Shown here one piece after another: positions 1 to 6,511 of a DNA stretch of 6,511 bases. The DNA comes from a virus (taxonomy: Duplodnaviria > Heunggongvirae > Uroviricota > Caudoviricetes). The notes beneath the pieces were generated by a model. The model was not told the origin of the DNA. It worked only from the letters and a program-made list of their open reading frames with translations, and made no database searches. The stretch is taken from positions 1 through 6,511 of IMG/VR virus record IMGVR_UViG_2698536485_000005; one strand, written 5' to 3'. The first letter of the stretch is position 1. Each line of letters starts with the position of its first letter. The position numbers were made by a program, and so were the translations under genes.

Positions 1-151
1 AGAGCCGTGTTTATTGAGTCGGTATTCAGAGTCTGACCAGAAATTATTAATCTGGTGAAGTTTTTCCTCTGTCATTACGTCATGGTCGATTTCAATTTCT
101 ATTGATGCTTTCCAGTCGTAATCAATGATGTATTTTTTGATGTTTGACATC
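1..151 (-). CDS. Hypothetical protein, N-terminal 50 codons only (runs off the left edge of the window); start ATG at 151..149
   Basis: Open minus-strand frame from ATG (151) to the window edge: MSNIKKYIIDYDWKASIEIEIDHDVMTEEKLHQINNFWSDSEYRLNKHGS... GAGG about 9 nt upstream of the ATG; in-frame stop immediately upstream fixes the start. Not in the ORF track because it is partial. No family recognised. Confidence 0.45.
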
Positions 152-171
152 TGTTCATATCCTCACAGATA

Positions 172-197
172 AAAAATCGCCCTCACATTGGAGGGCA
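172..197 (-). terminator. Intrinsic (rho-independent) terminator on the minus strand, downstream of the 346..795 gene
   Basis: GC-rich 6-bp stem GCCCTC (180..185) / GAGGGC (192..197) with a 6-nt loop; on the minus strand the stem is followed directly by a run of six T (plus-strand A-run 172..177). Confidence 0.6.
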
Positions 198-258
198 AAG
201 AAGATTTCCAATAATCAGAACAAGTCGGCTCCTGTTTAGTTACGAGCGACATTGCTCC

Positions 259-286
259 GTGTATTCACTCGTTGGAATGAATACAC
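259..286. repeat. Perfect 9-bp inverted repeat GTGTATTCA-N10-TGAATACAC in the 3' untranslated region of the 346..795 gene
   Basis: Arms at 259..267 and 278..286 are exact reverse complements; no adjacent T-run, so it is not an obvious terminator. Could be a protein-binding site or an RNA stem-loop. Confidence 0.4.
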
Positions 287-345
287 AGTGCAGTGTTTAT
301 TCTGTTGTTTATGCCAAAAATAAAGGACGGTTATGCGGCCTGAAA

Positions 346-795
346 TTACTTAACCAATGATGCTGCATATTCGATAAGGTAAAGTTTTGGGGCCAGCCAA
401 ATTTTTAACCAAGTCATATTGGTTACTACACCAATAATAAAAATCCCCCACAGAGTCAAAACTCCAACCAATGGCATGATAAGAAGGTTAATATCTCCTT
501 TGCTATCCCAAACCATTGTCGGCCTGTATTTGGGATTTCCCATCTCCCATGAGTATCCTTCATCACCGATTTTACCTGTCTCAACTCTTTGGCACTGCTT
601 CTTCATAAACCAGAAAACCAGTGGGATTGTTAGAATGGCTATTAATGTTTTAATCAGACTGTCAACCATATTCCATAGCAGCAACTGATGAACAACATCA
701 GGAATCTGTGCCTGGCTAAATGAAACAGCCGCGTCTATTCCATTACTGGCTTTTTGCAGTAGTTCTACGAGAATCTTGTTTGCTTGTTCTTCCAT
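346..795 (-). CDS. Small integral membrane protein (149 aa, two predicted transmembrane helices), function unknown; candidate prophage exclusion/abortive-infection effector
   Basis: ATG start with AAGGTG 4 nt upstream on the minus strand. About 46 soluble N-terminal residues, hydrophobic helix LIKTLIAILTIPLVFWFM, about 38-residue loop, second hydrophobic helix INLLIMPLVGVLTLWGIFIIGVV, short C-terminal tail. A+T-rich relative to the replication genes. No family recognised from memory. Confidence 0.7.
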   Translation of the reverse strand: MEEQANKILVELLQKASNGIDAAVSFSQAQIPDVVHQLLLWNMVDSLIKTLIAILTIPLVFWFMKKQCQRVETGKIGDEGYSWEMGNPKYRPTMVWDSKGDINLLIMPLVGVLTLWGIFIIGVVTNMTWLKIWLAPKLYLIEYAASLVK

Positions 796-873
796 ATATC
801 ACCTTAAATAGTGGATTGCGGTAGTAAAGATTGTGCCTGTCTTTTAACCACATCAGGCTCGGTGGTTCTCGTG

Positions 874-925
874 TACCCCTACAGCGAGAAATCGGATAAA
901 CTCTATTCACCCCTACAGAGAGAAT
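874..925. repeat. Two near-identical 16-17 bp direct repeats (ACCCCTACAG[C/A]GAGAA) spaced 34 bp apart in the divergent intergenic region
   Basis: Copy 1 at 875..890 (ACCCCTACAGCGAGAA) and copy 2 at 909..924 (ACCCCTACAGAGAGAA); they lie between the divergent starts at 795 (minus) and 941 (plus), the second copy just upstream of the GGAG ribosome-binding site of the 941 gene. Confidence 0.5.
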
Positions 926-940
926 GATGGAGATTCACCG

Positions 941-1480
941 ATGAGTAACTGGTGGCAGGAACTATTACGTTTCTTCCTGCGTGGTCTTACGCTACAACAG
1001 TTAATTCATATGCTTATTATTTTAATTGCCTTGATAATAATCACCCCAGCATCAATTAAAGAGTGGGTAGATATAAGGAACCCCGAAATACTTCCAGATC
1101 ACTGGATGTATTACGCAATGCTTTTGTGTATCAGTTATGTTCTGAACAGGGTGATGGAGTTTATATTTCTGGCATCTTCAGACAGATATAAAAAATATCT
1201 CAGTAAGAGAGATGAGGCTAAAGTAATTGTGGAGACTGAGCACCTGTTCAATTCTCTGAGTATTCAGGAAAAAGAGGTTTTAGCATTTGCTGTTATGGCA
1301 AATAACAAAATTGTACTTAAGCACGGCGATCCGGTCGCTTTATCTCTTATGAGAAAAGGCCTTCTCCATCGCTCAGGTGTGACTTACAGCGCGTCAGGTA
1401 AAGAGAAATTTGTTATACCTGACGTCTGGTTCCATGAGTGTTATATGCGCTTTGCTGGTAAAGCTGATGAGCTAATTTAG
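941..1480 (+). CDS. Membrane-anchored protein (179 aa; two N-terminal TM helices plus about 100-aa soluble C-terminal domain); possible SieB-like superinfection exclusion protein
   Basis: ATG with GGAG 8 nt upstream. Hydrophobic segments LIHMLIILIALIIITPA and WMYYAMLLCISYVLNRVMEFIFLA. Lies next to the immunity region and convergent with the predicted pL, the arrangement I recall for sieB in lambda/P22/Rac. Size and topology fit SieB, but sequence homology was not verified. Confidence 0.6.
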   Translation: MSNWWQELLRFFLRGLTLQQLIHMLIILIALIIITPASIKEWVDIRNPEILPDHWMYYAMLLCISYVLNRVMEFIFLASSDRYKKYLSKRDEAKVIVETEHLFNSLSIQEKEVLAFAVMANNKIVLKHGDPVALSLMRKGLLHRSGVTYSASGKEKFVIPDVWFHECYMRFAGKADELI

Positions 1481-1594
1481 TTCCTCGACGGCGGGGGATC
1501 GTCATCTCGCTGTCAGTTGTTTTGATTTCCTGTTGCCTGCCGCGTAAAGAGCTTGTGTCACGAGATCGCTAACCCCGTATATAAAAACACTTCA

Positions 1595-1610
1595 ATAACT
1601 ATCAAGTTAT
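1595..1610. repeat. Perfect inverted repeat ATAACT-atca-AGTTAT in the pL leader region
   Basis: Exact 6-bp arms with a 4-bp spacer; a second perfect inverted repeat with the same half-site in the opposite arrangement (AGTTAT-aaa-ATAACT) lies at 1743..1757 beside OL. Confidence 0.4.
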
Positions 1611-1706
1611 GGAAATGTTCTTTTGTAGTGAGCAGCATTGCCGTTCATCCTGAACCCGCCGCGCTCCCGACGCATGGTTTAATGTCGCGCCGTTCGACAT
1701 GGCTTA

Positions 1707-1735
1707 ACTATATCCAAAGCTATTATTGATGTAAA
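1707..1735 (-). promoter_or_regulatory. pL-like early leftward promoter
   Basis: On the minus strand: -35 TTTACA (plus 1730..1735), 17-bp spacer, -10 TATAGT (plus 1707..1712); predicted start near 1700. Both hexamers overlap operator-like sites. Confidence 0.6.
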
Positions 1736-1749
1736 TAGCTATAGTTATA
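1709..1749. promoter_or_regulatory. OL operator sites (two recognisable 16-bp sites matching the OR half-site consensus)
   Basis: AATAGC-tata-GTTATA (1734..1749) and TATATC-caaa-GCTATT (1709..1724) match the OR consensus AATAGC-N4-GCTATT; centres are about 25 bp apart and overlap the pL -35 and -10. Confidence 0.5.
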
Positions 1750-1833
1750 AAATAACTCCTTTGGTTATTTAATCATTGATATCTAATGTAATTTATTTTT
1801 CTTGTATGTGAGATTTGGTGTTTTTGGGGCAAT

Positions 1834-1860
1834 AAAAAACCCGCAAAAAGCGGGTTTGTT
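1834..1860 (-). terminator. Intrinsic terminator immediately downstream of cI (minus strand), possibly weakly bidirectional
   Basis: Stem CCCGC (1840..1844) / GCGGG (1850..1854) with an AAAAA loop, flanked by an A-run (1834..1839) that gives a T-run after the stem on the minus strand; it sits about 20 nt past the cI stop (1877..1875). The plus-strand side has only an interrupted T-run. Confidence 0.65.
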
Positions 1861-1874
1861 GTGGTGTGATGAGG

Positions 1875-2606
1875 TTAGTAGTCAACTACAGACCACCAGA
1901 AGATTCTTCCGATGATCTCGATATCGCTTAGATTCTTTTCTTCTTGTGGGTATTCCAGTGAGTTAAAGCTTCTAATGCTTACCTTGTCAGGCCCTGATCG
2001 AAAGAGAATCTTAATGCGTTTCCAACCGTTCTCGTTAATGGCGTAAATCTTTCCGTCAACTATTTTCTTATCGTTGGTGTTAACAGCAACTGTTGTTCCA
2101 TCAGGAATGTTTGGCTCCATGCTGTTGCCACGAGCCGGAAAACAAACAACCCCGCTTCCATCACTGTTCGCACCAACTCTGCGAAGGGTTGATTTGGAGA
2201 AGCGCAACATAAAGCCGTTGTGATCTTCATCAATCACCCGACCATCCCCGCATGCAAACTCAATATCTTTAAGGTAAGGAATTTCAACTTCATCACCTCT
2301 TAAAGGCGTTCCTCCATCCCATGGGTCCAAATATCCCCACGTGCTTTCATGAGGAATAGAAGATTTTGGATTATAAGGTTCAACTCCCTCATCACGCATT
2401 GGCCCAGTTCCATCGGAAAGCCATTCCGTACGAACTCCAAGCACTTTTGATATTTCAAAAAGTTTGCGCGTATTGCGTGTTTTTCCAGACGTAAGTTTCC
2501 AGACGCTTGGCTGAGACATGCCAACAGCATTGCCAAGTGAAGCCTGAGTAAACCCAGCCTGATCCATCGCGTATGTAAGCCTTTGAGAAAAAGTATCTAG
2601 TTTCAT
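1875..2606 (-). CDS. cI: CI-type prophage repressor: N-terminal HTH DNA-binding domain plus C-terminal LexA-like S24 autopeptidase domain
   Basis: 243 aa. N-terminal HTH region (...GFTQASLGNAVGMSQPSVWKLTSGK...), C-terminal GNSMEP serine motif (Ser162) and downstream GWKRIK lysine, with a linker F-A-C-G about 42 residues before the Ser. Divergent from cro across an operator region; apparently leaderless start, as for lambda pRM transcripts. Confidence 0.93.
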   Translation of the reverse strand: MKLDTFSQRLTYAMDQAGFTQASLGNAVGMSQPSVWKLTSGKTRNTRKLFEISKVLGVRTEWLSDGTGPMRDEGVEPYNPKSSIPHESTWGYLDPWDGGTPLRGDEVEIPYLKDIEFACGDGRVIDEDHNGFMLRFSKSTLRRVGANSDGSGVVCFPARGNSMEPNIPDGTTVAVNTNDKKIVDGKIYAINENGWKRIKILFRSGPDKVSIRSFNSLEYPQEEKNLSDIEIIGRIFWWSVVDY

Positions 2607-2612
2607 CCGGAC

Positions 2613-2641
2613 AACCTATAGCTACAGCTATTATTAGTCAA
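2613..2641 (-). promoter_or_regulatory. pRM-like repressor maintenance promoter
   Basis: On the minus strand: -35 TTGACT (plus 2636..2641), 17-bp spacer, -10 TAGGTT (plus 2613..2618), placing the start at or next to the cI ATG (2606). No Shine-Dalgarno before cI. Confidence 0.5.
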
Positions 2642-2681
2642 ATACCTAAAGCTATTTACTTTCTGAATAGCTTTGGCTATT
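2617..2681. promoter_or_regulatory. OR operator region: three inverted-repeat operators (OR3, OR2, OR1)
   Basis: tATAGC-taca-GCTATt (2617..2632), AATACC-taaa-GCTATT (2641..2656), AATAGC-tttg-GCTATT (2666..2681); centre-to-centre spacing about 24-25 bp. The outer sites overlap the -10 elements of pRM and pR. Confidence 0.7.
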
Positions 2682-2683
2682 AT
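2655..2683 (+). promoter_or_regulatory. pR-like early rightward promoter
   Basis: -35 TTTACT (2655..2660), 17-bp spacer, -10 TATTAT (2678..2683); predicted start about 2690, followed by the cro AGGAG ribosome-binding site (2702..2706). Confidence 0.6.
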
Positions 2684-2714
2684 TCTGATTGTGAATTCAA
2701 CAGGAGTTATTTTT

Positions 2715-2945
2715 ATGGTCAACAAGGCTATTAAAGCGGCTATTGACTCAGTAGGAAGTCAGCAAAAGTTAGCTGATGCCTGCGGTGTTAAGCAGCCGTC
2801 TGTATGGGCTTGGTTGCATGGGAAGAAAAGGGTATCCGCTGAAAATGCCAAGCGCATTGAAATGGCTACCAATGGAAGCGTCCCTGCATACCTGATTCGC
2901 CCTGATTTATCCGCTTTGTTCCCCAATCCGAACAAAGCAGCTTAA
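2715..2945 (+). CDS. cro: Cro-like small HTH repressor (76 aa)
   Basis: ATG at 2715 with AGGAG 8 nt upstream (the ORF-track start at 2673 is a TTG lying inside the operators/promoter). First rightward gene after OR/pR; HTH segment QQKLADACGVKQPSVWAWLHGKK shares the QPSVW motif with the CI recognition region. Not lambda-Cro-like in sequence; the call rests on position and HTH. Confidence 0.8.
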   Translation: MVNKAIKAAIDSVGSQQKLADACGVKQPSVWAWLHGKKRVSAENAKRIEMATNGSVPAYLIRPDLSALFPNPNKAA

Positions 2946-3064
2946 TAAAGCAAATCTTTATACCGAACGGCCCGGTATACGGTCGGGTGCCCGGCGTGGT
3001 CAAGGATGACTGTCAATGGTGCACGATAAAAACCCAAATTATTTATCTATGGAGATAGTAAGAA

Positions 3065-3361
3065 ATGACACAAGCAAGTTACAGCAAGCCAACACAGCGA
3101 GAAATTGATCGCGCTGAAACTGATTTACTCATCAACCTGTCAACGCTTACCCAGCGCGGTCTGGCAAAGATGATTGGCTGTCATGAATCGAAGATAAGCA
3201 GAACGGACTGGAGATTTATTGCTTCGGTCTTGTGTGCTTTCGGAATGGCATCAGATATCAGTCCGATTAGCAGGGCTTTTAAGTATGCGCTTGATGGACT
3301 CACCAATAAAAAACGCCCGGCGGCAACCGAGCGTTCTGAACAAATACAAATGGAATTTTAA
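3065..3361 (+). CDS. cII: CII-family transcriptional activator (98 aa)
   Basis: GGAGA ribosome-binding site 9 nt upstream. The C-terminal about 20 residues (LTNKKRPAATERSEQIQMEF) match the lambda CII C-terminus as I remember it; the N-terminal two-thirds differ from lambda CII. Position directly after cro is canonical. Confidence 0.85.
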   Translation: MTQASYSKPTQREIDRAETDLLINLSTLTQRGLAKMIGCHESKISRTDWRFIASVLCAFGMASDISPISRAFKYALDGLTNKKRPAATERSEQIQMEF

Positions 3362-3383
3362 TAACATCCAACGAGGTAATTAT

Positions 3384-3656
3384 ATGCGAAACAAAGGCTT
3401 TAATCCACCTGATACACACAAAGAAGTTAAGCGTTTGCGCTTCCTTCGTTCCATTGATGAAAGAACTCAAATCTCTTTTGTGAAAGTTGCCAGAACTGAG
3501 CTTCTGAAGGCTGAGGCAAGGGCGTTGCTCCCGTCTCTACCAAAAGAGGAGGGGTATACGTTCATTCCAAACGCATTTCTGGAAAAGCTGCTCAAAGAAG
3601 ACATATCCGTAAGTCAGTTTAACGATGTTCTTAAGGTCTTTCGTCAAGGCAGGTAG
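3384..3656 (+). CDS. Hypothetical protein (90 aa) between cII and the replication initiator
   Basis: ATG at 3384 with GAGG 7 nt upstream; stop TAG at 3654..3656, 2 nt before the O-like start. The ORF-track entry 3219..3656 is the same frame extended upstream into cII and is not preferred. No family recognised. Confidence 0.55.
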   Translation: MRNKGFNPPDTHKEVKRLRFLRSIDERTQISFVKVARTELLKAEARALLPSLPKEEGYTFIPNAFLEKLLKEDISVSQFNDVLKVFRQGR

Positions 3657-3658
3657 TT

Positions 3659-4606
3659 ATGAGCAATACAGCAAAAATCTACGATTTCAGCGCCGCACAC
3701 GAGCGCAGGAGCAACAGGATGGAGAACCAGAAAACTGGTTACATTCCGTTGTACCGGAGCATTCTGAAACAGTCATGGGCGAAAGATGTTTATCTTCGCA
3801 CCCTGTGGGAAAACCTTCTCCTGAATGCCGCCAGAAAGCCATACAAAGCGAATTTCAAAGGTCATGAATGGCATCTGCAACCCGGTCAACTGGTTGTGAC
3901 AGCAGCTGATTTAGGTCTTCAGTTATGCGACAGGCATGGCAAGCCGGCAAGCCGTGATCAGGTTGAGCGGATGCTTCAGGTTTTTGTGAAAGAGGGGATG
4001 ATCTCCATTGATGGAGAGAAGCAAAAAGGTCGTGTGATCACCATCACAAATTACCATGAATACGCTCAAAAAATGGACAATTCACCCGCACATGATGCCG
4101 CACAAACAACCGCACATGATGCCGCACATGATGAAGACAGTAATGGCGCGGCTTTCAGCGTACATGCCGCACATGAAAGCGCACATGAAGCCGCACAAAC
4201 AACCGCACATCATGAACAAGAAGGTATTAACAAGAATATAAATAATACCCCCCTACCCCCCAATGGGGGCGGCGATGGGCAGGTTAAACCTGAACGTCGC
4301 AAGGCAGAACGCATCGACTACGAATCCTTCCTGAACGCCTACAACACCGAAGTCGGTGACAGACTGCCACACGCTGTTGCGGTCAACGAGAAACGCAAAC
4401 GCCGCCTGAAGAAAATCATCCCGCAACTGAAAACGCCAAACGTGGACGGTTTCAGAGCGTATGTCAGGGCGTTTGTGCATCAGGCCAAGCCGTTTTACTT
4501 CGGAGACAACGACACGGGCTGGACGGCCGATTTTGATTACCTGCTGAGAGAAGATTCGTTAACGGGAGTTCGGGAAGGGAAGTTTGCAGACAGGGGGATT
4601 GCATGA
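3659..4606 (+). CDS. O-like replication initiator protein (315 aa) with the internal origin
   Basis: N-terminus [10 protein letters not shown]... resembles the lambda O N-terminus (MTNTAKI...). The middle of the gene carries tandem 12-bp DNA repeats encoding an Ala/His/Asp-rich linker, followed by an AT-rich tract; the stop overlaps the helicase start (ATGA). Confidence 0.88.
4086..4250. repeat. Replication origin: eight 12-bp iteron-like direct repeats in two blocks of four, followed by an A+T-rich unwinding region
   Basis: Block 1 at 4086..4133 (CCGCACATGATG, CCGCACAAACAA, CCGCACATGATG, CCGCACATGATG); block 2 at 4167..4214 (CCGCACATGAAA, GCGCACATGAAG, CCGCACAAACAA, CCGCACATCATG); AT-rich stretch 4215..4250; then a CCCCC...GGGGG element at 4251..4270. 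Same iteron-plus-AT-tract-inside-O layout as ori-lambda. Confidence 0.7.
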
Positions 4607-5979
4607 GACAGGATATCGAAGCGAGCGTTATCGGTGGCCTGCTGATTGGTGGATTAACACCAACCGCCAGCGACGTTCTGGCAACACTGGAGCCGGAAGC
4701 GTTTTCAATTCCGCTCTACCGGAAAGCCTTCGAGGTTATCCGCAAGCAGGCGAGAAACAGAAACCTAATCGATGCGCTGATGGTTGCCGAGGCGTGCGGA
4801 GAGGAGCATTTCACGTCAATCCTGATGACCAGCAAAAACTGCCCGAGTGCCGCAAACCTGAAGGGATATGCCGGAATGGTCGCGGATAACTATCACCGCC
4901 GTCTGGTGCTGGAAATCATGGATGAAATGCGTGAACCAATTCAGAGCGGAACCATCGACGCATCGAGTCAGGCGATGGATGAACTTGTAAAACGTCTCTC
5001 AGCCATCAGAAAGCCCCGTGACGAGGTTAAACCTGTACGGTTAGGGGAAATCATTACTGACTACACTGACACGCTTGACAGGCGTCTGAGGAACGGAGAA
5101 GAGTCAGATACCCTGAAGACCGGAATCGAAGAACTTGATGCCATCACCGGAGGGATGAACGCGGAAGACCTGGTGATAATCGCTGCTCGTCCTGGTATGG
5201 GGAAAACCGAGCTGGCGCTGAAGATTGCCGAAGGCGTGGCAAGTCGTGTTATTCCTGGTTCTGACGTCCGGCGCGGAGTATTGATTTTCTCGATGGAAAT
5301 GAGCGCATTGCAGATTGCAGAGCGAAGCATTGCCAACGCCGGGAGGATGTCGGTTAGCGTACTGCGAAATCCTGCATCAATGGATGACGAGGGCTGGGCA
5401 CGTGTTGCTAACGGCATGAGTCAGCTTGCAGATTTGGATGTATGGGTAGTCGATGCCTCGCGGTTATCGGTCGAAGAAATACGCTCAATCGCAGAACGGC
5501 ACAAACAGGAAAATCCAAACCTCTCACTCATCATGGCGGATTATCTTGGCCTGATTGAGAAGCCGAAAGCAGACCGCAACGACCTCGCAATTGCTCACAT
5601 CTCAGGAAGCCTGAAGGCGATGGCGAAAGACCTGAAAACACCGGTTATCTCCCTAAGTCAGCTTTCGCGCGATGTTGAGAAGCGACCAAACAAACGCCCG
5701 ACAAACGCAGATTTGCGTGATTCAGGAAGCATTGAGCAGGACGCAGACTCAATCATCATGCTCTATCGGGAAGCGGTATATGACGAGAACAGTAGCGCCG
5801 CGCCATTTGCTGAAATCATCGTGACGAAAAACCGTTTTGGCTCACTTGGTACGGTTTACCAGCGGTTCTGCAACGGACACTTTGTTGCATGTGACCAGGA
5901 TGAAGCCAGACAGATTTGCACAGCATCAAATGCGCCTGCTGCGCGTGGCAGACGATATGCACAAGGGGCGGACGTATGA
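4603..5979 (+). CDS. DnaB-family replicative DNA helicase (458 aa; P22 gene-12-type phage helicase)
   Basis: AGGGGGA ribosome-binding site 6 nt upstream. DnaB N-terminal domain motifs (IGGLL..., [15 protein letters not shown]), Walker [13 protein letters not shown], and C-terminal [41 protein letters not shown] typical of DnaB helicases. Confidence 0.95.
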
Positions 5980-6004
5980 CCATCTACATCACTGAGCTAA
6001 TAAC

Positions 6005-6036
6005 AGGGGCTATTTACACAGTAGCCCTTTTTTATT
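6005..6036 (+). terminator. Intrinsic terminator after the helicase gene (tR2-like position, before the nin region)
   Basis: Stem GGGCTA (6007..6012) / TAGCCC (6022..6027) with a 9-nt loop, followed by TTTTTT (6028..6033). Confidence 0.6.
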
Positions 6037-6057
6037 GGATTAAGAACGAGGGGGATC

Positions 6058-6273
6058 ATGATGGACACTGTTAACGGAATGTGTTCAGACGCACCGCGTG
6101 CCAAAAAATGTAAATGCGGAAAATCACCGACAATATTTGACATGGAGAACGGGTGCCAAATCTACTGCGCTAACCACGCCGCTGTGGCGGCCGCGAATTA
6201 TCGCAGTGCGGTAACGGAGTGGAATAACCTGAAATCTGTTAGAGAGGGAAGTCATGAAAAAACTAACCTTTGA
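6058..6273 (+). CDS. Small Cys-rich hypothetical protein (71 aa), possible zinc-binding
   Basis: GAGGGGG ribosome-binding site just upstream of ATG 6058. Five Cys arranged C-x8-C-x-C-x12-C-x3-C; the 3' end overlaps the ninB start by 20 nt. No family recognised. Confidence 0.55.
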   Translation: MMDTVNGMCSDAPRAKKCKCGKSPTIFDMENGCQIYCANHAAVAAANYRSAVTEWNNLKSVREGSHEKTNL

Positions 6274-6511
6274 AATTCGATCTCCAGCACATCAGCAAAA
6301 CGCTATTCACGCAGTACAGCAAATCCTTCCAGACCCAACCAAACCAATCGTAGTAACCATTCAGGAGCGCAACCGCAGCTTAGACCAGAATCGAAAGCTT
6401 TGGGCTTGCCTTGGTGACGTTTCTCGTCAGGTTGAATGGCATGGTCGCTGGCTGGATGCAGAAAGCTGGAAGTGCGTTTTTACAGCAGCATTAAAGCAGC
6501 AGGATGTTGTT
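6254..6511 (+). CDS. ninB: NinB (Orf-family recombination mediator), N-terminal 86 codons; continues past the right edge
   Basis: Translation MKKLTFEIRSPAHQQNAIHAVQQILPDPTKPIVVTIQERNRSLDQNRKLWACLGDVSRQVEWHGRWLDAESWKCVFTAALKQQDVV matches lambda NinB as I recall it; GAGGGA ribosome-binding site upstream; open to the window end. Not in the ORF track because it is partial. Confidence 0.9.
   Translation, partial: MKKLTFEIRSPAHQQNAIHAVQQILPDPTKPIVVTIQERNRSLDQNRKLWACLGDVSRQVEWHGRWLDAESWKCVFTAALKQQDVV

Follow-up and report, generated by a model that had tools for sequence, protein, structure and literature searches.

In lambda-like phages, the replication origin is expected to lie inside the gene of its own initiator. 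Iterons 1–4 of the lambda record occupy positions 39034–39118, and ori-lambda as a whole extends over 39034–39160, comprising the iterons and a 38-bp AT-rich tract (PMC3349717). The four lambda units are 18–19 bp long with dyad symmetry, are spaced 20–24 bp apart and are bound by dimers of the O protein. A less familiar form of such an origin is built from short repeats, and our study concerns an apparent example at positions 4086–4279 of a 6,511-nucleotide (nt) stretch of DNA from a virus of the Caudoviricetes (IMG/VR record IMGVR_UViG_2698536485_000005, positions 1 to 6,511; hereafter, the whole stretch is called the window). Sequence comparison indicates that this element is very probably the theta-type replication origin of a lambdoid (P22/HK97-style) prophage, situated within the disordered linker of the initiator. 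This reading draws on the enrichment of a core motif, constraint at silent sites, co-variation with the N-terminal domain of the initiator, modular inheritance, positional orthology to the iterons of lambda and HK97, the disorder predicted for the linker and the precedent of phage L.

Several described origins invite comparison. HK97 carries four 18-bp dyad repeats, ATTAGCCAAGTCGGCTAA, spaced 20–24 bp apart, where the window has eight units, and in both the repeats precede a segment of the form ACCCCC-TTA/CTA-CCCCC...GGGGGCGGCGATGGG. P22 gene 18 and HK97 gene O resemble our locus in the C-terminal domain of the initiator, the right-arm element and the DnaB-type helicase, with repeats at the same position, but they have another N-terminal domain and four dyad-symmetric repeats of about 18–20 bp. 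In the Shiga toxin (Stx) phages 933W and P27, as here, the iterons lie in the O gene and vary in number, which alters the length of the initiator linker. Their six lambda-type dyad iterons have been shown experimentally to bind O dimers (PMC7466680), whereas binding to the repeats of the window is predicted from sequence.

Salmonella phage L supplies the precedent for short repeats. Its gene 18 contains a ‘putative origin of replication’ of six imprecise 11-bp repeats, TGTCCAACGGA (PMC8022706), entered as rep_origin 31649–31725 in GenBank MW013502, with a layout of three units, a spacer containing AGTAATGACGCGGCT, three further units and an AT tract. The window has the same layout and spacer element, again in an O-like gene followed by one for a DnaB-type helicase, and a homologous N-terminal domain: the L-type domain of ENT47670, to which phage L is 68% identical, is 25% identical to that of the window over its full length. 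The two differ in the unit (TGTCCAA in phage L, CCGCACA in the window), its length (11 versus 12 bp), the number of copies (3+3 versus 4+4) and the C-terminal domain. Every tested feature of the phage-L-type short-repeat origin, itself predicted, is present in the window.

The likeness to ori-lambda is one of architecture. The repeats fall between the domain-coding parts of an initiator gene of the Phage_rep_O family and are followed, in the direction of transcription, by an AT tract of about 35–40 bp; repeat specificity goes with the N-terminal domain, and the C-terminal domain goes with the helicase system. The differences are that the window has eight 12-bp direct repeats, in two arrays with a constant 33 bp between them, and that the module encodes its own DnaB-type helicase, whereas lambda uses the P loader and the host DnaB. 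The module is not a classical ori-lambda, because it is made of 12-bp direct repeats and not of dyads of about 19 bp. A preliminary description of this DNA had proposed an ori-lambda architecture with shorter, 12-bp-phased iterons, and both the direct repeats without dyad symmetry and their positional orthology to the lambda and HK97 iterons bear this out.

The two blocks of four tandem 12-bp repeats named in that description were recovered by Tandem Repeats Finder at 4086–4133 (period 12, 4.0 copies, score 61) and 4167–4210 (period 12, 3.7 copies, score 53), which together give eight units in register (Table 1). The 6.5-kb window contains 9 copies of the core SCGCACA where 1.64 ± 1.26 would be expected, and none of 200 shuffled sequences has as many as 9. 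Eight of the nine cores fall within 4086–4209, all on the + strand, the window holds no second cluster of the motif, and no inverted repeats were found within or between the 12-bp units. Counted from the last unit of array 1 to the first of array 2, the step measures 45 bp in every window-type lineage, and four other N-domain clusters, whose units are unrelated, have steps of 45 or 44 bp.

Polymorphism along the gene separates the demands made on the DNA from those made on the protein. Among 65 distinct genes with N-terminal domains 99–100% identical, 6% of sites are polymorphic in the N-terminal domain, 32% just ahead of the repeats, 21% in array 1, 52% in the spacer, 35% in array 2 and 14% in the C-terminal domain, whereas none of 31 sites varies in the AT tract. 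Unit positions 1–9 are almost invariant in these relatives, with the core at positions 1–7 nearly invariant in both arrays, and the variation in array 1 is mostly at unit positions 10–11. As the cores and the AT tract stay fixed while the peptide encoded by the segment varies, the protein is free to change here and the DNA core is not.

Codon usage leads to the same contrast at greater distances. In five lineages that are 73–80% identical in the N-terminal domain, the core alanine codon is GCA in 32 of 36 cases, compared with 21 of 149 alanine codons elsewhere in the same genes (Fisher 1e-17), and the codon before it ends in C in 34 of 36, even though it encodes A, P, T, G, S or C (3e-13); both P values overstate independence, given that units arise by duplication and the lineages share ancestry. 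The test errs on the conservative side, since three of the four GCA exceptions come from an EYAQ motif included by mistake. Between the same lineages, four-fold degenerate sites in the N-terminal domain are only 37–53% identical, which is near saturation. The contrast is large all the same, and gene conversion cannot, on this pattern, explain it, because conversion would homogenise whole units and not just positions 1–9. A protein-level function of the His/Ala repeats was rejected, as other subfamilies have GTPH, ERPQ, EVTK or DEPS at the same place.

The repeats also change together with the domain that would read them. Scans of IMG/VR and tblastn searches yielded 130 loci in 12 N-domain clusters, each of which bears its own unit: CCGCACA in the window type, CGATGAACCA or GAACCATCC in the S.Inf 5-2 type, TGTCCAA in the phage L/ENT47670 type, and GGTACACCC, CGCCCTCA and GTAACAAA in further clusters. 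The encoded tetrapeptides (PAHD, DEPS, GTPH, ERPQ and EVTK) are chemically unrelated among clusters. The layout is constant: a period of 12 bp (11 bp in the L type), two co-oriented arrays of 3–5 units with a step of 45 (44) bp in most clusters, and then the AT tract, which is present in all subfamilies and starts ...CAGAACAA or ...GAACAAGAAGG.

On the other side, the same N-terminal domain and repeats, together with the left part of the AT tract, are attached to at least four types of C-terminal domain. The window-type N-terminal domain and repeats are joined to a P22/HK97-type C-terminal domain with a DnaB-type helicase in the window and CUS-3, to a lambda-O-type C-terminal domain with a lambda-P partner in Klebsiella and Yersinia phages, to a phage-L-type C-terminal domain in P0079, and to others in L011, L012 and P0075. 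In the Klebsiella and Yersinia hybrids, repeats of the window type stand in place of the four lambda iterons, ahead of an AT tract and the lambda right arm TCGTCAGAGAATTCTGGCGAATCCTCTGAC (TCGTC-GAGAATTCTGGCGAATCCTCTGAC). HK97, ST104, BTP1 and others share only 4232–4606 with the window, at 96% nucleotide identity, whereas the Klebsiella and Yersinia phages share only 3706–4242. The start of the first homology and the end of the second place the exchange point inside the AT tract, at 4232–4242, and every junction between the different partners falls in this tract. Because the gene upstream and the C-terminal domain both vary, the N-terminal domain is the sole constant partner of the repeats. 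Together with silent-site conservation and the AT tract, this co-variation and mosaic inheritance support the earlier proposal that the initiator gene harbours an origin.

The AT tract is the candidate DNA-unwinding element. It is the lowest-GC 31-mer within 3659–5979 and less stable than any other part of the two replication genes; in the window as a whole, only two 30-mers are less stable. The preliminary description had given it 36 bp; an AT-rich stretch does follow the repeats, with 18% GC, but it measures 33 nt (4215–4247). The C/G-tract element that comes next is common to the window and HK97. A short G/C inverted element had also been proposed there, and its sequence, CCCCCC-AAT-GGGGG, is present at 4256–4269. 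The hairpin itself was rejected as a structural signal, because its stability does not exceed that of shuffled sequence (z = +1.28). Similar C5–6...G5 motifs follow the AT tract in four loci with other C-terminal domains (L006, L012, L113 and L119). The codons over 4247–4269 read ACC CCC CTA CCC CCC AAT GGG GGC; CCC, CTA and GGG are rare in Escherichia coli, which hints at DNA-level constraint on this segment as well.

The spacer between the arrays contains a further conserved element. AGTAATGGCGCGGCTTT is kept across subfamilies with unrelated iterons, being found at 4139–4155 of the window, in L005, L113, L118, L120 and L122, and in phage L (L133 1228–1242); the form shared with phage L is AGTAATGRCGCGGCT, in a fixed spacer of about 33 bp. 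Its codons GGC GCG GCT TTG are kept at third positions across subfamilies (GGC in 13 of 15, GCG in 13 of 15), and the element (cf. GGCGCGGCTTT) encodes S-N-G-A-A-(L/F). What is conserved could be either a peptide motif or a site on the DNA at which a common factor acts. The spacer also holds a degenerate ninth unit, GCGTACATG, at 4158–4166, 9 bp ahead of array 2, in which a T-to-C polymorphism at 4161 (Val to Ala) converts GCGTACA to the perfect core GCGCACA in 18 of the 65 distinct relatives. The sole CCGCACA outside the arrays, at 3693–3699 in the 5′ end of the initiator gene, encodes AAHE, the tetrapeptide of a repeat unit; it is probably not a binding site, since the S.Inf 5-2 type retains SAAHG there despite its different iterons.

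A comparison of repeat number across relatives, which the preliminary description had suggested, gives a natural range of 3 to about 20 units, all in frame. In the 120 best cluster representatives of 1,376 homologues, arrangements with near-identical flanking domains include single arrays of 3, 4 or 5 units, 3+3, 4+4 and 10+4 units, about 4+5+4 units, and four arrays. The 4+4 form predominates when cluster members are counted (409, 294 and 1,458 sequences). One unit equals 4 codons and an array plus spacer 27–31 codons, and recombination between units therefore never breaks the gene. Blocks of array plus spacer have been amplified to 3–4 copies, or one array to 10 units (L097 from IMG/VR, P0011, P0015 and P0039), in both the window type and the S.Inf 5-2 type. 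A Symbiopectobacterium metagenome-assembled genome (L012, 1924–1960) has a single array of about 3 units, no spacer and yet another C-terminal domain, paralleling the common 284-aa E. coli and Salmonella variants. A ‘true unit’ of 24 bp was ruled out by the single-array variants with 3, 4 or 5 units.

The gene that contains the element encodes an initiator of the O/P22 gp18 kind. It matches Pfam PF04492 (Phage_rep_O) over aa 20–132 (E = 3.4e-15; 56.8 bits against a cut-off of 28.7) and PHROG 345, ‘replication initiation O-like’ (E = 7e-100); a sequence search of the Protein Data Bank (PDB) gave no match, and NCBIfam gave no family. In an AlphaFold2 model based on a 16-sequence alignment, aa 32–137 adopt an alpha/beta fold with predicted local distance difference test (pLDDT) scores of 75–90, and a second confident domain spans about aa 216–310, with helices predicted over aa 221–305. 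The Foldseek match list of the N-terminal domain against the PDB consists mostly of winged-helix DNA binders, none significant individually (best E = 0.087). Between the two folded domains, aa 138–215 (nt 4070–4303) have pLDDT scores of 25–38 and no secondary structure, which predicts a disordered inter-domain linker; this segment covers precisely the repeats, the AT tract and the C/G element. The earlier claim that the repeats encode a linker of an O-like protein thus agrees with our model, in which they correspond to aa 143–186 of the 315-aa protein. In the loci examined (the window, CUS-3, HK97 and S.Inf 5-2), the C-terminal domain adjoins the gene for a DnaB-type helicase; that of the window matches Pfam DnaB_C (E = 9.5e-78) and the DnaB N-terminal domain (E = 4.5e-13).

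Could the repeats bind the initiator without forming an origin? They might serve autoregulation, titration, handcuffing or copy control, with unwinding taking place elsewhere in the phage genome. Co-variation and silent-site conservation show a cis element matched to the N-terminal domain and do not show its role, copy number varies widely in nature, and cloned lambda iterons alone can inhibit phage replication (PMC3349717). We nevertheless consider such a role by itself unlikely: at a fixed distance behind the repeats there is always the tract of the replication genes that melts most readily, and it is invariant in the 65 relatives, the repeats occupy the exact place of the experimentally defined ori iterons of lambda and stand beside the lambda right arm in the hybrids, and their motif forms no other cluster in the window. 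Slightly less credible still is that another factor reads the repeats, be it a host protein, the product of the 90-aa open reading frame (ORF) at 3384–3656, the helicase or the C-terminal domain, and that the link to the N-terminal domain is hitch-hiking. The coding region of that domain physically adjoins the repeats, so that linkage alone gives some co-variation, and the conserved spacer element hints at a second reader of the region. However, unrelated genes stand upstream of the initiator in relatives (encoding a ParB-like DNA-binding protein in the Klebsiella phages and a KilAC antirepressor in the Yersinia phage), the repeats are shared by at least four C-domain types and two helicase systems, and a host factor would not require 12 unit sequences among phages of related enterobacteria. 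Nor are boxes for the host initiator DnaA enriched, with 15 found against 14.9 expected and none in the element.

Finally, slippage might have produced the repeats as nothing more than a low-complexity linker of the protein, in which case the DNA itself would have no function. The predicted disorder of the region, a repeat number that varies but always in frame and an amino-acid sequence that is hypervariable among close relatives are all in keeping with this idea. Against it, silent positions of the core are kept while the residues vary, on a nearly saturated synonymous background; the peptide chemistry is unrelated among subfamilies that conserve the period and geometry of the DNA; and slippage alone would not hold a 45-bp array step or an invariant AT tract. 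We regard it as the least probable of the three, and very improbable. An origin of the iteron-plasmid class was also rejected. Such plasmids use Rep proteins with WH1–WH2 domains and iterons of 17–22 bp at a spacing of about 22 bp, with a DnaA box, in contrast to the 12-bp period, chance-level DnaA boxes and Phage_rep_O initiator found here. The matches from a plasmid search are 36.7-kb circular records that resemble circularly assembled P22-like phage genomes and are uninformative on replicon function; the prophage on the 179-kb plasmid pCDF6_2 has another initiator.

Some points weigh against an origin at 4086–4279. The unit lacks the dyad symmetry of proven lambdoid iterons, so its mode of binding is conjecture; the phage L origin is only a prediction; the searchable literature turned up no binding, footprinting or origin-activity data for the module; the G/C inverted element is unsupported as a structure; and the units and lineages behind the codon tests are not independent. 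Single-array variants of 3–5 units are also fairly common, and either eight units and two arrays are not strictly required or the short-array prophages are defective. Full-text searches of the literature gave no description of this particular origin, and no origin is annotated at the initiator gene in the phage records examined, CUS-3 among them. Papers on ‘Eru’ typing of Stx phages make no mention of origins or iterons and state that replication by non-lambda modules is unstudied.

If 4086–4279 is the origin, initiation might proceed as follows. The winged-helix-like N-terminal domain would recognise the 7–9-bp core SCGCACAWG of each unit. As direct repeats spaced by about one helical turn, the units would most likely be bound head to tail, in two cooperative arrays of four and not by dimers on dyads. 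The resulting nucleoprotein complex would strain and open the adjacent AT tract, and the C-terminal domain would bring in the phage-encoded DnaB-type helicase without a lambda-P-type loader. We infer binding, its stoichiometry and orientation, unwinding, helicase recruitment and origin activity alike from the sequence. In E. coli oriC, arrays of DnaA boxes, 9-mers at 11-bp phasing, form two oppositely oriented arrays by an AT-rich unwinding element. The analogy lies in short co-oriented sites about one helical turn apart, in two arrays beside an AT-rich element, and suggests head-to-tail cooperative filaments; oriC differs in its unrelated initiator, the AAA+ protein DnaA, and in the opposite orientation of its arrays.

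It is possible, though on balance doubtful, that a large O-like subfamily builds an initiation complex unlike the lambda O-some, in which monomers would assemble head to tail, at sites phased by about one turn (11–12 bp), on two arrays a fixed 33 bp apart, AGTAATGGCGCGGCTTT would be read by a common partner (a host factor or an invariant surface of the initiator), and copy number and specificity would evolve freely, because the unit is exactly four codons within a disordered linker. If true, the subfamily would provide a set of phage origins that are mutually orthogonal and can evolve naturally. Most deserving of further work are the regularities seen across the family and the conserved spacer element, and the pairing of N-terminal domains with unit sequences amounts to a data set on how a winged-helix initiator reads DNA. 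The replication module is common: the initiator gene is 98–99% identical to O or ‘replication protein’ genes of CUS-3, JEP4, HF4s, Gally and about 50 Stx2a-converting phages, and Kapi1 is also among the phages with relatives of the module at 98% identity. The segment 4086–4279 is a directly testable cis element for studies of induction and of Stx-phage copy number, and could serve phage-derived replicons and the prediction of incompatibility or exclusion between co-resident prophages.

The ORF list, Pfam and PHROG identify the window as the immunity and replication region of a lambdoid prophage (Table 1). The whole window matches E. coli prophages, and parts of it match 2,421 of 5,426 complete E. 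coli genomes.

Table 1 Features of the window, with positions counted from its first nucleotide.
Feature	Position	Strand	Description
sieB	941–1480		
cI-type S24 repressor	1875–2606	−	
cro	2673–2945		
cII	3065–3361		
90-aa ORF	3384–3656		Function unassigned; between cII and initiator; PHROG 2519 the only match
Replication initiator gene (O/P22 gp18-like), 315 aa	3659–4606	+	ORF, Pfam, PHROG
N-terminal (winged-helix-like) DNA-binding domain, aa 1–137, coding region	3659–4069	+	AlphaFold2, Foldseek, Pfam
61-aa ORF, alternative frame, spurious	4056–4241	+	ORF list
Iteron array 1, four 12-bp direct repeats	4086–4133	+	CCGCACATGATG, CCGCACAAACAA, CCGCACATGATG, CCGCACATGATG; unit starts 4086, 4098, 4110, 4122
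Inter-array spacer, 33 bp	4134–4166	+	Holds element AGTAATGGCGCGGCTTT (4139–4155) and degenerate ninth unit
Iteron array 2, four 12-bp direct repeats	4167–4214	+	CCGCACATGAAA, GCGCACATGAAG, CCGCACAAACAA, CCGCACATCATG; unit starts 4167, 4179, 4191, 4203
AT-rich tract, candidate DNA-unwinding element	4215–4247		33 nt, 18% GC
Right-arm C/G-tract element	4247–4279		ACCCCCC-TA-CCCCCC-AAT-GGGGG-CGGCGATGGG; read from sequence
C-terminal helical domain (P22 gp18/HK97 O type), coding region	4280–4606	+	Presumed helicase-interaction domain
DnaB-type replicative helicase (P22 gp12-like)	4603–5979	+	Overlaps initiator stop codon; PHROG 19

Among the neighbouring features, the 61-aa ORF had been called a spurious by-product of the repeats, and we agree: it runs in another frame, and stops interrupt that frame in relatives (L002, L003 and L010), leaving open stretches of at most 22–46 aa. 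The 90-aa ORF has no Pfam or NCBIfam match and is left unannotated in CUS-3. The N terminus of the initiator (window 3659–3680) is close to that of lambda O (MTNTAKI...), which is a recognition signal for ClpXP; the likeness suggests that the initiator may be similarly unstable. Many database entries begin instead at Met21 (MENQK; window 3719), giving a protein of 295 aa. No Rfam family reached threshold in the window, and no sigma-70-like promoter was found in 3000–4700. On the minus strand, antisense to the 3′ end of cII, positions 3310–3337 form a strong intrinsic-terminator-like hairpin (12 pairs, then a T-run), whose position and sequence resemble those of the terminator of the lambda oop antisense RNA.

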